From an uncultured delta proteobacterium (GTDB lineage: Bacteria > Desulfobacterota > Syntrophobacteria > Syntrophobacterales > Syntrophobacteraceae), in the NCBI GenBank assembly GCA_963808625.1, contig CAWEHK010000036.1:1-64000 (forward strand): a DNA stretch of 64,000 nt, read 5' to 3'. Shown piece by piece: positions 50,386-56,476 of the stretch (within the stretch, counting starts at the first letter, position 1; each line of letters begins with the position of its first letter). A program made the position numbers and the translations under genes. The notes beneath the pieces are model-generated. The model saw only the letters and a program-made list of their open reading frames with translations. It was not told the DNA's origin and ran no database searches.

Positions 50386-50468
50386 CAATGCTGCCACGGT
50401 GCTTTGATGAGGGTCCAAGCCATGTGGGGCAGGCTTTCCAGCCTGCCTTTCGGCCGGTTCGGCATGGC
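50386..50468. mobile_element. Partial, diverged inverted copy of MITE type 1
   Basis: caatgctgccacggtgctttgatgagggtccaagccatgtggggcagg resembles the reverse complement of 20340-20396. Confidence 0.65.
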
Positions 50469-50882
50469 GTGGAGTCTCACCGGCGCCGACAGTTGCCGAA
50501 CGATGGCAAGCTCATCAGAGCGTTGCGGCATTCGTTGCACTTGAAGCGAGGGGAATCTTGTGCCGCCCCAGTGCCTTGGGTGATACGGCTCTCCCATTCT
50601 CCTCTTATGCCATTGTGAATCACACCCTGCGACATCTCAGCATATCCATTCCATTCCCGTACTGCTACTCCCCATGAGTAGAGGGCATGATGTTGGCAAG
50701 TTATGCTTTGGGTGCTGTTGTCCACTCATGATTTGTCTTGTCGCTCTGACGGGACATCGCACAACTCTTTCCGACGATCATAAGAAATGTGTCGGATGAG
50801 ATATCTTCTGATTGACGCCAATCTGGCACAATCGTATTCTGCTATCGGTTCCGGATTAAGGTTGGAAGATTATTATGCCGAT

Positions 50883-50983
50883 CCGCAAAAGACACCGCGA
50901 TAAGCCGCGAGGCAGAGTGCAACCAGCTAAAAACAAAGGGCTTAGCGCGCTATTGGCTACCGGTTCGATGGTATGTTATGCGG
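50883..50983 (+). other. Degenerate integron attC-like site 1
   Basis: CCGCA..ATAAGCCG ... CGGTTCGAT..GTTATGCGG dyad; R' GTTATGC at 50975. Confidence 0.45.
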
Positions 50984-51035
50984 GCAGAAATGCGAAAATT
51001 CGCATCTTATGAGGATCAGCCTAATCTCTCTTTAT

Positions 51036-51119: not shown

Positions 51120-51611
51120 ATGGCTTTGCAGCATCCCGTTCCCAATGACCACCTCCAGCACATTGGCGATATCACGGTTTCCTTTGCAGCACTTGAAAGC
51201 GTGCTGCAAGGATTTGCCCAGTCTTTGCTTGGTGCTAGTGGGCGTTTAGGGCAGATCGTCACAGCCGAACTTTCGTTTAAGAGGCTTCGGGCGTTAACTG
51301 CGAGCTTGTACCTTGAACGACAGGGTGAAGACGAGGACTACGATGCGTTTCGCGAACTCCTCAGGAGGGCAGCCGACGTCGAACAGGTGAGAAATCAGAT
51401 TACGCATTCTACCTGGGCCGTCGGAGACGATTCGACAAGCATTACTCGCATCAAGACCACTGCGAAGGAGAGACACGGAATCCGCTTTCAGTTTGAAAAC
51501 GTTACGAGTGATCAACTCGCGGAGTTTGCGCTTAGCATCAGGGTCCTTGCTGAAGATATTTTGCGGTTCTTGATTTCGCTCCTTGGACCTGGAAAGGCAA
51601 GTAATGGTTAG
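51120..51611 (+). CDS. Gene-cassette hypothetical protein (HEPN-like RxxxxH motif)
   Basis: 163-aa ORF bounded by attC-like sites; RNQITH motif. Confidence 0.7.
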   Translation: MALQHPVPNDHLQHIGDITVSFAALESVLQGFAQSLLGASGRLGQIVTAELSFKRLRALTASLYLERQGEDEDYDAFRELLRRAADVEQVRNQITHSTWAVGDDSTSITRIKTTAKERHGIRFQFENVTSDQLAEFALSIRVLAEDILRFLISLLGPGKASNG

Positions 51612-51622
51612 CGTATTGGAAG

Positions 51623-51686
51623 CCCTAACCCTTCCAACGAACGGTCAGCCCACGACAAACAGTGGTATGCCGCTCATGTTACACAT
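51623..51686 (+). other. attC site 3, R' core split by the IIC intron (remainder TAGGC at 52047-52051)
   Basis: CCCTAACCCTTCCAACGAACGG..CCGCTCATGTTACACAT|TAGGC matches the common CTAACCCTTCCATCGA..TCATGTCAAACGTTAGGC attC type. Confidence 0.75.
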
Positions 51687-52046
51687 GTGTGCCGGGCATG
51701 GCACAGAACTAGCGAGGTGGAAGTCCTCGTGCCAGGTTTACGCTGAGCCGAAGGCTAGGAGAAGGGCAAGGGCGTCATCGAGAACTGGAGTCTGAAGGAA
51801 GTCCAATCCAACAGCACGCGGCGACTAACAGAACCCGAATATGAGGTGTGGTACGTTCGGGACCGCCGGGCACGTGACTGCGAAGTCCTGCCTTGGCGAT
51901 TGCCCTGCCCGGCAAGTGTTTTGTGTCTATAGGTCTACCGCAACTGTTTGAGAAACCGACTTCATCTGCTGAACCCCCTTGGTACGTGATCTGTATGCCG
52001 GGTGGTGTGGGAGGAGGGAAGACGTGAGGCGGCTCCCTATCCCGAT
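51687..52046 (+). mobile_element. Internally deleted group IIC intron (360 nt)
   Basis: 5' GTGTGCCGGGCATGG; IIC DI motifs (GCAAGGGCGTC..GTCTGAAGGAAG); IEP tail LAIALPGKCFVSIGLPQL; DV/DVI ending CCTATCCCGAT. Confidence 0.85.
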
Positions 52047-52083
52047 TAGGCTGGAACCAATCGACAAAGAAGGAGGAAGCATC

Positions 52084-53007
52084 ATGAACCAATCAGCGCC
52101 CACACGCGACCATGAGTGGATGGATTACTATAAGCATTTTCGCTATCTCTCATCGGAGGCTGTTCGGGATGGTTGTTATCCAAGAATCATGGAACATGAG
52201 GAACCAGCGAAGAAGTCGATCGTGCTGGTGCACGGTCTTACCGATTCGCCATATTTCATGACTGCAATCGGGGACTATTTTTTTGAAACCCTAGGATATG
52301 ATGTCTATTTGCCTTTACTCCAATGTCATGGGCTAAAGGAACCGAGGGGCATGGAAGGGGTAAGTCTGGATGAGTGGAAGGCCAACGTGAGCTTTGCGGT
52401 AGAGACAGCCAAGTCAAAAGGCAAGCAGGTCGCTATTGGTGGATTGTCCACCGGTGGAACACTGAGCTTCTTCACTGCAGTGAAGAGCCCAGACATCACT
52501 GGCACCCTGTATCTATTCTCCGCGGCACTCGATCTCGCAGGTGGCATTGGTGGCATTGTGGGTGACCTGGAGGAACGCTTACTGCGCACCTTTCTGGTCG
52601 ATATCTTGGACTTATTGGGCAACGACAAGCCCCTAATCGGCAACAATCCCTACCGCTACGTCCGCATGGACATGGACGGTGCGCGGGAATTGTCCAAGCT
52701 GATCCAAGAAACTGACGCTCTCATCAAAGGGTTCAATGCGAAAGAACCCCTTTCAATACGTATCTTTGCTGCGCATTCCGAGAGTGATTCGACTGCAAAC
52801 ATTGCGGGCATCGAAGAACTAGAGAAGGTATCGGCCCCCGGCCGGTTCACGTTTTTTCGTATCCCCCAAAAGGCAACGGTGTCTCACGCAAGCGTGGTTC
52901 TTAGGGGTCATATCTATGCTACCGATGCTTCCGATGTTGATTTCCCTCTGGAATACGCCAACCCACTGTTTCTAAATATGATGAAGGCTATTGCTGCCAT
53001 TGAGTAG
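52084..53007 (+). CDS. Alpha/beta hydrolase (carboxylesterase-like), cassette-borne
   Basis: LVHGLTDSP, GGLSTGG nucleophile elbow, D and H catalytic candidates; RBS AAGGAGG. Confidence 0.85.
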   Translation: MNQSAPTRDHEWMDYYKHFRYLSSEAVRDGCYPRIMEHEEPAKKSIVLVHGLTDSPYFMTAIGDYFFETLGYDVYLPLLQCHGLKEPRGMEGVSLDEWKANVSFAVETAKSKGKQVAIGGLSTGGTLSFFTAVKSPDITGTLYLFSAALDLAGGIGGIVGDLEERLLRTFLVDILDLLGNDKPLIGNNPYRYVRMDMDGARELSKLIQETDALIKGFNAKEPLSIRIFAAHSESDSTANIAGIEELEKVSAPGRFTFFRIPQKATVSHASVVLRGHIYATDASDVDFPLEYANPLFLNMMKAIAAIE

Positions 53008-53068: not shown

Positions 53069-53263
53069 CTAAGTAGAGCGCCACAAAAAAGAATGTCCAT
53101 TATGCCGCCTCCTTGAGGGGGTCGGGTAAGCCATGATTTTGGCTACGGACTTGCTGGTCCATTTGAGCGGATACGCGTTTTGGTTCCACGGCTCGATATA
53201 CTCGTAGAGCTTGGTACGCAAATGATCAATTGCTATGATGCTATAGGCGCTGACATTCAACAT
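53069..53263 (-). mobile_element. IS630-family transposase C-terminal remnant with element end
   Basis: LRTKLYEYIEPWNQNAYPLKWTSKSVAKIM resembles IS630 C-termini; ends ...CTCTACTTAG. Confidence 0.6.
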
Positions 53264-53331
53264 TTGAAGATTATATGGAAAACGTTAAGGAATTTAAGGT
53301 ATTGGCAAGCTATGGTGAAAATGCTACTCCT

Positions 53332-53418
53332 ATGCATCTGTTTGAGGTAGGTTAAGATTTGAGAACGGTCCACGCACTGCTAGGCGATAGCGACGTCAAG
53401 ATAACGATGATTCATTAG
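53332..53418 (+). pseudogene. Integron-integrase/tyrosine recombinase C-terminal relic
   Basis: Translates HLFEVG*DLRTVHALLGDSDVKITMIH vs IntI-type HLLExGYDIRTVQELLGHSDVxTTMIY. Confidence 0.7.
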
Positions 53419-54150: not shown

Positions 54151-54213
54151 TTATAACCATGGCATGCAGTCGATCGCTGAAAAAGCCGGCTCCCGCTGAT
54201 GCCTTCGTTGGGT
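54151..54213 (+). other. attC site 4
   Basis: R'' TTATAAC, GGCATGCAG.CG/CGCTGATGCC dyad with extrahelical G, R' GTTGGGT. Confidence 0.8.
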
Positions 54214-56476
54214 TGCGACACGATGTCGCATAGTTGAGTGTACTCAGGTACTTACCTGGAGTACCCGGCATGTTCCTGCCGGACCCTACGCAGGCGTGCT
54301 ACCGTCGCGCTGATGACGGGGTGCGAAGCCCTGCGGACAATGTACCGAAACGGGTTCGAATGGTGACAGGAGAACCCCTCCGGGAATCCTCCCCGGTTAA
54401 GGGCTAGGGTCGGATGATACGGTGAAATTAATTGAATGTCTGCAAGCGTCGTCAAAGAGCGACAGACCTACGAGGATTAACAAGAAGCATTACCAGGTCG
54501 AAGGCCGCTTCCCAGTGTTTGCGGCAAGGGTCAGGATGCAGGTCTCCTAACTGCCTGTACGGAACCAAAGCACCCTCGGCGTAGAGGACGCACCTAAGTC
54601 ATCCATTGGATCAACTGTGAGGAACGTGGTAACCCCGCCCTTCGCCTGGAGCAAGTCCAGGCAAGCGAACCGCAAGGCACGCCGATGGAGAGGCGGGAGG
54701 GAGAGGTTGGAAGAAGCGAATGCTTTCGGGAAAGCCGGAAGATAGGGCCTGAAACATGGCTCAACGCCAAAACCGGTGAGCTTCAGCCCCGGTGAATGAG
54801 CGTGCAGACGTCCAACTGGTGTCTCGTTGCGAGAGAACTGGTAGAACCTTTGAAGATGAGAAAGCAAATGACGGCCGACAAGGCTGGTGCACTCAGAGAT
54901 GACGCTGACAAGTGGAATTCCATTGACTGGAAGAAAGCCCAGCGGGAAGTCAGAAGGCTGCAAGTGCGTATCGCAAAGGCTGTGAAGGAAAACAGATGGA
55001 ACAAGGTCAAGTCACTGCAATATCTGTTAACCCATTCGTTCTACGCCAAGCTACTGGCTGTGAAACGAGTGACCTCCAACAAGGGGCGTAAAACCCCCGG
55101 CGTTGACGGCGTCCTGTGGCGAGGCGTCCGAGCCAAATGGCGGGCTGCTTGCAGCCTGCGCAGACGTGGCTATCATCCTCAGCCCTTGAGGAGGATCTAT
55201 ATCGAAAAGAAGAATGGCAAATTAAGGCCCCTATCGATTCCCGCCATGTATGACAGAGCCCAACAGGCGCTTTATAAGCTGGGACTGGCGCCCGTAGCCG
55301 AAACGACAGCCGACAAGAATTCCTACGGTTTTCGTGAAGGCAGATCGTGTGCTGATGCCGTAGCCTGTGCCTTCAATGCTCTCTCGAAGCCCAATTCGGC
55401 TCCATGGATACTCGAAGGGGACATAAAGGGCTGTTTCGACAACATCTCGTTCCAATGGATGTTGGAGAACATCCCCATGGATAAAGTCGTTCTTCAAAAG
55501 TGGTTAAGGGCAGGGTATGTGGAAAACGGCATCCACTACCCTACACGCAAGGGAGTTCCTCAAGGTGGGATCATTAGCCCCACCATCTCGAATATGGTGC
55601 TTGACGGATTGGAGGAAGCCGTCCGCTGTGCAGTCCCCCGCAGGTGCCGTATCAACTTCGACCGCTACGCTGATGACTTCATCTGCACAGGTAAATCAAA
55701 AGGTATCCTGGAAGATGCCATCCAGCCAGTGGTTGAAGGCTTCCTTGCCGAGCGTGGTCTTGAGCTCTCACCCGAGAAAACCCTGATCACGCACATAAAA
55801 GACGGATTCACGTTCCTCGGGCAAACCTTTCGAAAGCATGGCCGGGTGCTGCACATCACGCCATCCACTGAGGGAGTTCTCGCCCTCATGCAGAAAGTGG
55901 GAACCATAATCCGCGAACACGTCAGCGCGCCGATGCCGGTCTTGATCAAGAAGCTTAATGCAATACTTCGGGGTTGGGCCAATTACCACCGCCACGTGGT
56001 GGCGTCGGAAGCCTTCAGTCGTATCGACACCTATGTCTTTGAACAACTCTGGCGCATGGTGCGCCGACGGCACTCCGCCAAATCCGCGCAATGGCTGATC
56101 AAGAACTACTGGTCAGCTGCGGGACGCAATGTATTTGCCGTTCTGGCCAAGACCGCTAAGACCGCGAAGAAACTCTACAAGGTCATGCGAGTAAGCGCCA
56201 TGGGGATTCGGAGATATGTGAAGATCAAAGCGGATGCTAATCCTTACCTGCCTGAGTACGCCGGCTATTATTGGCGACGTCGGAACAGGAAGGATAGCAA
56301 ACTGCTGCCGGCCATGTCGGCCCGGGAATTTCGGGCCATGGCCTCGGCTTAGGAGGCAACACAGCCGGGCAGCCCAACAGGGGCTGCCTCTTGAGATGCT
56401 TGAGCGGTGTGACGCGAAAGTGTCATGCACCGTTCTTAGGGGGGAATGGGGCCGAGAGGCCCCTGACCTACCCGGT
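54213..56476 (+). mobile_element. Full-length group II intron, IIB/chloroplast-like class (about 2264 nt)
   Basis: 5' TTGCGACACG; GGAACGTGGTAA DI/DII junction; DV GAGCGGTGTGACGCGAAAGTGTCATGCACCGTTC; DVI ending CTACCCGGT. Confidence 0.9.
54856..56352 (+). CDS. ltrA: Group II intron reverse transcriptase/maturase without HNH domain (open frame starts at 54796)
   Basis: RVT_N (VRRLQVRIAKA), TPGVDG, RPLSIP, YGFR.GRS, GDIKGCFD, PQGG, YADD, RGWANY; stops soon after KIKADANPY. Confidence 0.95.
   Translation: MRKQMTADKAGALRDDADKWNSIDWKKAQREVRRLQVRIAKAVKENRWNKVKSLQYLLTHSFYAKLLAVKRVTSNKGRKTPGVDGVLWRGVRAKWRAACSLRRRGYHPQPLRRIYIEKKNGKLRPLSIPAMYDRAQQALYKLGLAPVAETTADKNSYGFREGRSCADAVACAFNALSKPNSAPWILEGDIKGCFDNISFQWMLENIPMDKVVLQKWLRAGYVENGIHYPTRKGVPQGGIISPTISNMVLDGLEEAVRCAVPRRCRINFDRYADDFICTGKSKGILEDAIQPVVEGFLAERGLELSPEKTLITHIKDGFTFLGQTFRKHGRVLHITPSTEGVLALMQKVGTIIREHVSAPMPVLIKKLNAILRGWANYHRHVVASEAFSRIDTYVFEQLWRMVRRRHSAKSAQWLIKNYWSAAGRNVFAVLAKTAKTAKKLYKVMRVSAMGIRRYVKIKADANPYLPEYAGYYWRRRNRKDSKLLPAMSAREFRAMASA

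Follow-up and report, generated by a model that had tools for sequence, protein, structure and literature searches.

Introduction

How did a 360-nt element with the ends of a group II intron come to split an attC site in an integron cassette array, and which strand of that site did its parent enter? The question arises from a 64,000-nt stretch of DNA (the window), in which all coordinates given here are positions unless a contig or locus label is stated. The group IIC particle recognizes a DNA stem-loop by shape, followed by a short spacer, and then IBS1 and IBS3 by pairing (PMC10190682). In the canonical IIC-attC introns, namely S.ma.I2, Kl.pn.I3, and their kin, the hairpin is that of an attC (PMC3001079, PMC7923331). 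Here, we argue with high confidence that the window copy is a dead, internally deleted member of a distinct IIC clade, one that retrotransposes into the top strands of attC sites.

Anatomy of the Element

The 360-nt element is a group IIC intron that has lost its interior and sits within the R' core of an attC on the + strand. It is present as a single copy in the source genome. The features of the locus are the following.

50858-50990, + strand: attI-like site heading the array, core GTTATGC at 50975-50981; 82-83% to two same-genus loci
51120-51611, + strand: ORF of the first cassette, 163 aa, without an assigned family; its stop codon is 11 nt ahead of R''
51623-51686, + strand: 5' part of the attC, with R'' at 51623-51629, L'' at 51635-51642, L' at 51672-51678, and a 6-nt spacer
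51687-52046, + strand: group IIC intron remnant, exactly 360 nt, GTGTG...CCCGAT, flanked by ACAT and TAGGC
51687-51889, + strand: intron 5' end and 5' part of domain I (nt 1 to ~203)
51872-51875, + strand: EBS1 (ACGT), from a covariation scan
51884-51889, + strand: junction of the deletion; 6-mer AGTCCT, compatible with the domain I side as well as the coding side
51884-51955, + strand: last codons of the intron-encoded protein (SPALAIALPGK...; blastp-short, best E 5e-9)
51971-52046, + strand: DV and DVI, from an HMM and relatives; ends in CCCGAT
52047-52051, + strand: rest of R' (TAGGC), whose first base T is IBS3
52084-53007, + strand: next cassette ORF, alpha/beta hydrolase (Pfam Hydrolase_4, E 3.7e-7)
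54213-56476, + strand: other group II intron (Rfam), TTGCG...GT ends, 518-aa protein, after GTTGGG of the next attC

The element has the GUGYG 5' end of group IIC and, after DV/DVI, the AY 3' end. Its first 216 nt match full-length group IIC introns of related genomes at 83-88% (BLAST, best E 2.9e-72). Its last 76 nt match relatives at 83-87% by BLAST, a comparison free of the circularity in the HMM score of DV/DVI (73 bits), for which the window copy itself was among the 21 seeds. Between these parts, 24 residual codons correspond to the C-terminus of IIC intron proteins, and the full-length relatives pass TIGR04416 and group with IIC proteins. A short EBS1-IBS1 pairing downstream of a DNA hairpin is likewise recognizable, with three of the four pairs left and the hairpin decayed. 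At curated or gathering thresholds, Rfam leaves the element undetected and finds the window's other intron as its sole intron match. At relaxed thresholds, it returns one IIC-type domain I match (RF02001, 23.8 bits vs a cut-off of 32), and neither setting gives a DV/DVI match for the element. Folding of the 360-nt RNA yields no signal relative to shuffles (z +1.48).

The anatomy was read against a 1984-nt full-length relative (genome G045, locus L053). Relative to it, the window copy retains nt 1 to ~203, then the last 24 codons of the intron-encoded protein, then DV/DVI. Approximately 1.6 kb are gone: the 3' part of domain I with EBS3, DII, DIII, and nearly all of DIV. An earlier note, made from the letters of the window, had described a IIC 5' end and domain I, terminal protein codons, and DV/DVI, with DII-DIV lost. 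We find each of these parts and that loss, except that domain I is incomplete, ending at nt ~203, so that the deletion extends to EBS3. The 6-mer AGTCCT stands at the coding position in relatives L062 and L050 and is absent there in the G045 copies, a distribution that suggests that the deletion arose at this 6-nt microhomology.

Relatives of the Element

The BLAST comparison that the earlier note had proposed does identify full-length relatives. Among 72,556 plasmid records, 23 match the 360-nt element, and in nine the match, at 76-80%, spans nt 1-203 or nt 1-216. Three of the nine were fetched, and all three hold full-length relatives within class 1 integrons, oriented like the annotated cassettes. 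These relatives are inserted at GT|TAG of aacA4, aadA1, and aadA2 attC sites. BLAST matches also occur in 21 of 122 same-class genomes, the source genome included, and in none of seven same-genus genomes. Genome G045 carries five copies at five different sites, and four of their proteins are 99.8-100% identical, which would point, indirectly, to recent mobility of the clade.

A scan of GTDB contigs used the intron's own 5' end as its pattern, was thus blind to the target, and returned at least 120 loci. The sample also took 79 metagenome loci (the best 79 of 597 protein matches) and 20 further plasmid regions. An HMM run over the collected loci gave 252 domain I matches, 236 of them with a 5' end and 217 distinct. 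EBS1 was callable in 134 elements, of which 64 have ACGT (the ACGT type) and 70 are other IIC introns; 83 truncated or low-scoring elements were excluded. ACGT-type copies are present in at least 11 phyla, a phylum being on record for 38 of 67 copies. In 301 same-phylum genomes, a pattern count gave 10 positives, vs 0 for a reversed-pattern control.

Short derivatives without the protein, both ends kept, recur in the clade. These are L061:3585-3736, L063:3559-4012, L126, L105, and L062:3414-4306, with sizes of 152, 454, 701, 728, and 893 nt. The 454-nt derivative keeps domain I through EBS3 as well as the CGC triad, and its 5' end is altered.

Target Rule and Choice of Strand

The target rule emerges from covariation between intron and exon. 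Specifically, in 73 non-ACGT elements, exon positions -1 to -4 covary best with intron nt 186-189. In the non-ACGT group, 182 of 210 EBS1-IBS1 pairs are Watson-Crick, vs a mean of 92 and a maximum of 113 in shuffles. The same columns fall at 51872-51875 in the window copy, exactly where the earlier note had put EBS1. Covariation similarly places EBS3 at nt 231 of the full-length relative, a base that is complementary to the one opening the 3' exon in 15 of 18 non-T cases and in 62 of 64 T cases, and that lies within the window copy's deletion.

The exons conform to this pairing. Among the matches listed, the exon ends in CGT in 60 of 64 ACGT-type elements vs 6 of 70 other IIC elements; the first base of the 3' exon is T in 31 of 32 ACGT-type cases, and TRR follows the cut in 24 of 32. 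Top-strand attC geometry fits better at 55 of 61 ACGT-type sites among the matches listed (worse at 4, tied at 2). The other IIC elements, with 28 top, 20 bottom, and 10 ties among the matches listed, display no strand bias. These comparisons use an attC score that is a crude heuristic: on seven bottom-strand controls, it called four bottom, one tie, and two top. Kin elements are non-independent, and p-values derived from such counts overstate. An ORF-orientation test separates the two groups poorly (same-strand ORF in 24 of 38 vs 21 of 32).

The pattern could in principle reflect something else, namely, that a terminator-type IIC intron hit an attC hairpin by chance and that the clade prefers only a hairpin followed by CGT. 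IIC particles do recognize a hairpin by its shape, together with four bases (PMC10190682), related genomes and contigs rich in arrays may be over-represented in the sample, and 23 of the 61 ACGT-type sites score below 9.5, some without an evident attC, among the matches listed. However, 38 of the 61 sites score at least 9.5 with a 5-7 nt spacer, and T-rich exon ends, present in 35 of 58 other IIC introns, occur in 3 of 61 ACGT-type cases, both among the matches listed. The scan by the intron's own 5' end argues in the same direction: among the matches listed, NCGT closes the exon at 86 of the 118 loci that have 4 nt of exon or more, and 81 of 111 finish in CGT, with the top strand favored in 73 of these 81. 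We consider the chance hit improbable. Insertion of relatives after ordinary terminators, which the earlier note had named as a result that would refute its reading, is not what the T-rich counts show.

The preferred reading, insertion into attC top strands, yields a compact rule. As comparison across elements shows, the clade's ACGU pairs with NCGT, and the cut, 7-9 nt beyond the L box, falls in front of a T. In the 38 well-scored targets, the bottom strand has CGT 3 times and TTGT 14 times at the mirror position. From these counts, we infer that strand choice would need no more than EBS1. In line with this, three attC sites (L177, L066, and L062) hold a top-strand intron at one end and, at the opposite end, an intron of canonical type that points away. 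The divergent pairs lie at L177:150-340, L066:2950-3200, and L062:3250-3460, with the top-strand type at R' and the GTACG type at R'' on the bottom strand; at L062, the second intron is some way upstream, and its junction is putative.

Eight further IIC introns (L195, L251, L264, L268, L275, L286, L287, and L290) have EBS1 CACT or GACT. They insert after a common hairpin ending in TTAGTG or TTAGTC, possibly another specialized target, and three of them adjoin tyrosine-recombinase genes.

Phylogeny

The window copy has no protein and is consequently placed by domain I rather than in the protein tree. Its domain I part is 88.7% identical over 203 nt to the closest full-length relatives, and every one of its 26 best non-self domain I matches has EBS1 ACGT. 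The tree comprises 96 proteins, taken from open frames of at least 330 aa and including one outgroup, and was built as quick trees without bootstrap. In it, a single branch (SH-aLRT 99, two models) separates all 26 ACGT-type proteins from the rest, and the grouping persists when the outgroup is removed. Four canonical IIC-attC proteins (EBS1 ACAA, exon TTGT; L200-L203) form another group; L200, L201, and L203 are opposite to annotated cassette genes, and L202 is without such annotation. The best tree places the ACGT group among terminator-type introns. Forcing both attC groups together costs only 2.97 log-likelihood units, and the joint clade is not rejected (p-AU 0.462, with four canonical proteins only).

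Two introns, L050:7001-8840 in a Proteus penneri plasmid integron and L101, encode near-identical proteins (branch lengths 0.005 and 0). L101 is the intron of an anaerobic-digester Gammaproteobacteria MAG, and its site differs from that of L050 and has no evident attC.

A larger scenario can be sketched, though tentatively and at somewhat less than an even bet. The top-strand clade would be old, present in at least 11 phyla, and far more than a clinical curiosity, and its descent from terminator-type IIC introns would be separate from that of the canonical IIC-attC introns. The two lineages would share one palindrome by virtue of two EBS1 bases, each on its own strand and at times both on a single attC. 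Counting the IIB-type introns discussed below, attC would have been colonized three times.

State of the Window Copy

The window copy is a remnant by descent, not a working intron. Its DV triad reads CCC at 51975-51977, as the earlier note had seen, where 32 of 34 complete ACGT-type copies (the window copy among the 34) have CGC. With that triad altered and the DI-DVI core incomplete, two hallmarks of a functional ribozyme are missing. The local IBS1, ACAT, mismatches EBS1 at one position, the sole such case among 64, and the G-to-A change is assumed to have come after insertion. Four reverse transcriptases are found in the 85%-complete assembly, and none resembles a IIC helper: in tblastn, two match a clade protein at 26-28% and two not at all. 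A scan for promoters and terminators is at chance level (1 promoter vs 1.0 expected, 3 terminators vs 1.6 expected). No RNA run is listed among the sequencing runs that hold this DNA. Contigs of four sequencing runs hold only pieces of the region, with no joint across the element, and are uninformative on splicing or an empty site. A search of 41 related genomes for an empty allele of the cassette or attC brought up the attI-like region alone, in two genomes besides the source. No RNA step, be it use of transcription or splicing, is plausible for the window copy.

A functional mini-intron without an ORF, spliced or mobilized in trans by a helper protein, would also have two precise ends and a retained DVI, and short derivatives do recur in the clade. 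However, the deletion has removed EBS3, DII, DIII, and the strand that closes domain I, and the triad is mutated. The short derivatives inspected vary in size and content, the genome holds one copy, and no IIC helper was found in the 85%-complete assembly. We regard a living mini-intron as very improbable. The verdict of the earlier note, that the element is "probably dead", is borne out and was, if anything, understated.

The attC Site and the Cassette Array

The local attC displays the R''-L''-L'-R' geometry and an extrahelical base that marks the strand, an extra C at position 4 of L'' (the 5' arm). The heuristic geometry score is 9.5 for the top strand and 7 for the bottom strand. The empty local site, aligned with the aacA4 attC in its annotated orientation, scores 51, whereas its reverse complement scores 28 and none of 1000 shuffles exceeds 30. 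This difference between the same-strand and reversed alignments places the insertion in the top strand, inside R', with the split at ACAT|TAGGC that the earlier note had recognized (IBS1 ACAT at 51683-51686). Its label for the site, attC 3, is not confirmed: one attI-like site and two attC sites were found in the stretch.

Although a near-palindromic attC offers GT|TRR at both ends and the local site is decayed, a standard IIC-attC insertion, in which the attC truly lies on the minus strand and the intron occupies its bottom strand at R'', has almost no probability left, being refuted by the oriented aacA4 alignment and the co-oriented plasmid relatives, with the extra C in the 5' arm, cassette ORFs on the + strand, EBS1 ACGT rather than ACAA, and the separate grouping of canonical copies all pointing the same way. 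The sense-strand, R'-specific variant that the earlier note had proposed has company: relatives that share this EBS1 enter attC top strands at NCGT|TRR and are co-oriented with cassettes in the three integrons fetched.

The local attC is decayed. Its R' is split, its first two bases are AT instead of GT, and it therefore reads AT|T where a recombinogenic attC would have an intact GTT in R' and a stable bottom-strand hairpin. DNA folding of the attC 5' part is no better than shuffles on either strand (z -0.69 and -0.93). The hydrolase ORF on the 3' side of the intron has its own ribosome-binding site.

The array appears to begin at 50858-50990, which comparison suggests is an attI. Of its relatives (L292, L294), one, in a same-genus genome, begins just after an integrase-like C-terminal piece on the same strand; upstream of the other same-genus locus lies an integrase-like reading frame. 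The placement of a same-genus attI-like locus directly after same-strand integrase remnants suggests integrons in which the integrase is co-oriented with the cassettes. No integrase gene adjoins the array within the window, and the two matches above the integron-integrase cut-off are both on other contigs of the assembly. At 53245-53415 (+), ahead of an SDR gene and the next attC, the array includes a degenerate C-terminal integron-integrase fragment (a weak match to TIGR02249, E 2e-4). Between secF and the attI-like site, at ~50400-50470, lies a short inverted-repeat element with many copies on many contigs of the source genome (G000).

The Second Intron of the Array

The intron at 54213-56476 is inserted in the top strand of a different attC, 4 nt further along R' than the IIC site. 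At the protein level, identity is 28%, in line with the earlier description of the two introns as unrelated. Its ends resemble those of UHB.I2, by which we infer class IIB/CL1 (PMC7923331). The earlier suggestion that two intron classes converge on one part of attC holds for a common target region; the p-AU of 0.462 given above leaves room for a joint clade of top- and bottom-strand IIC-attC introns.

The genome holds five further loci related to this intron. GTTRRC precedes three of them, an attC-like hairpin whose core is degenerate precedes a fourth, and the fifth yielded no 5' end. They lie at C44:27115-27954, C53:54795-55626, C41:4689-5547, C24:2866-3105, and C49:13664-14469. Three of them are ~840 nt long and lack most of the protein gene; these relatives may be mobilized in trans by the window's intact 518-aa protein. 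Finally, C38:82648-82719 is an isolated, unrelated IIC DV/DVI remnant after a metabolic gene, and no matching 5' part was found in the genome.

Proposed Mechanism

The notion is that, for the intact parent, the folded top strand of an attC would present the hairpin that the RNA-protein particle grips. By the target rule that the comparison shows, EBS1 ACGU pairs with NCGT where R' begins, EBS3 (A) pairs with the T that follows, and insertion falls at GT|TRR, a single base beyond the integrase crossover point. The near-palindromic attC offers two mirror-image sites, the top one mostly CGT|T and the bottom one often TTGT|T, and the last two bases of EBS1, as ACGU or ACAA, could suffice to pick the strand. 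A top-strand copy would be transcribed with the cassettes, would need no promoter of its own, and could be spliced from the array mRNA. At the level of DNA, insertion turns GTT of R' into GTG and would probably block recombination at that attC.

Following insertion, the window copy lost ~1.6 kb, probably at the 6-nt microhomology, and decayed, with G-to-C in the triad and G-to-A in IBS1. It can no longer fold a catalytic core and now serves only as a 360-nt plug fixing the first two cassettes together.

Comparison with Known Systems

Both habits seen in this array are already published. A top-strand attC IIC intron was reported in 2012 from an Enterobacter cloacae integron (J Bacteriol 194:150, as cited in PMC7923331). 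The window copy resembles that type: it is IIC, lies within R' in the attC top strand, and is co-oriented with the cassettes. The 2012 study, by Rodriguez-Martinez, Nordmann, and Poirel, reportedly described an aadA1-qacE junction, a link to blaVEB-1, a mobility assay, and a separate branch. From that aadA1/blaVEB-1 context, the 2012 intron is probably our locus L051. L051 is the intron of Shewanella algae pKC-Na-R1 (KC-Na-R1), noted as co-oriented in PMC9229058. L051 has the same EBS1 as the window copy, inserts at GT|TAG of the aadA1 attC, is 77% identical to the window copy over domain I, and has its protein in the same clade. Unlike the E. cloacae and S. algae elements, the window copy is chromosomal, measures 360 nt, and lacks a protein, EBS3, and an intact triad.

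UHB.I2, a IIB1/CL1 intron directly after an attC (PMC7923331), shares with the window's 54213-56476 intron the TTGCG...GT ends, the orientation of the cassettes, and the position directly after R'. That type is unrelated to the 360-nt element and inserts 4 nt further downstream in R'.

The canonical IIC-attC introns share with the top-strand clade the IIC class, the attC hairpin, the cut at GT|T, and a 4-nt EBS1 at the same place in domain I. Unlike the clade, they occupy the bottom strand at R'' (TTGT|T), have EBS1 ACAA, run against the cassettes, begin with GTACG, and form a separate group. The window copy does not have their bottom-strand R'' position opposite to the cassettes; its IBS1/EBS1 are ACAT/ACGT vs TTGT/ACAA in L200-L203. 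Terminator-targeting IIC introns share the clade's architecture, and the clade falls among them in the best tree. Unlike the clade, their EBS1 varies (AAAG, AAAT, CAAT, CACT, and others) and T-rich ends are common, as in the 35 of 58 cases among the matches listed.

In the literature searched, which comprised mainly open papers, we found no survey of the clade's breadth or of the EBS1 rule; the 2012 paper may state EBS1. What is added here is the spread over at least 11 phyla, EBS1 and EBS3 by covariation, a simple explanation of how the strand is chosen (CGT on the top, TTGT on the bottom), and three attC sites occupied on both strands. The window copy itself is debris and at most locks two cassettes together. 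The clade, on the other hand, offers a testable rule, in that a hairpin-reading retroelement picks the strand of a palindromic target via a natural pair of EBS1 sequences. Sense-oriented introns able to ride array transcription are common in environmental integrons; PMC7923331 and PMC9229058 treat them as single cases. Finally, the clade touches on the proposal that IIC introns help to form cassettes (as summarized in PMC3053210): the top-strand lineage leaves the attC attached to its gene, whereas the canonical lineage separates the two.
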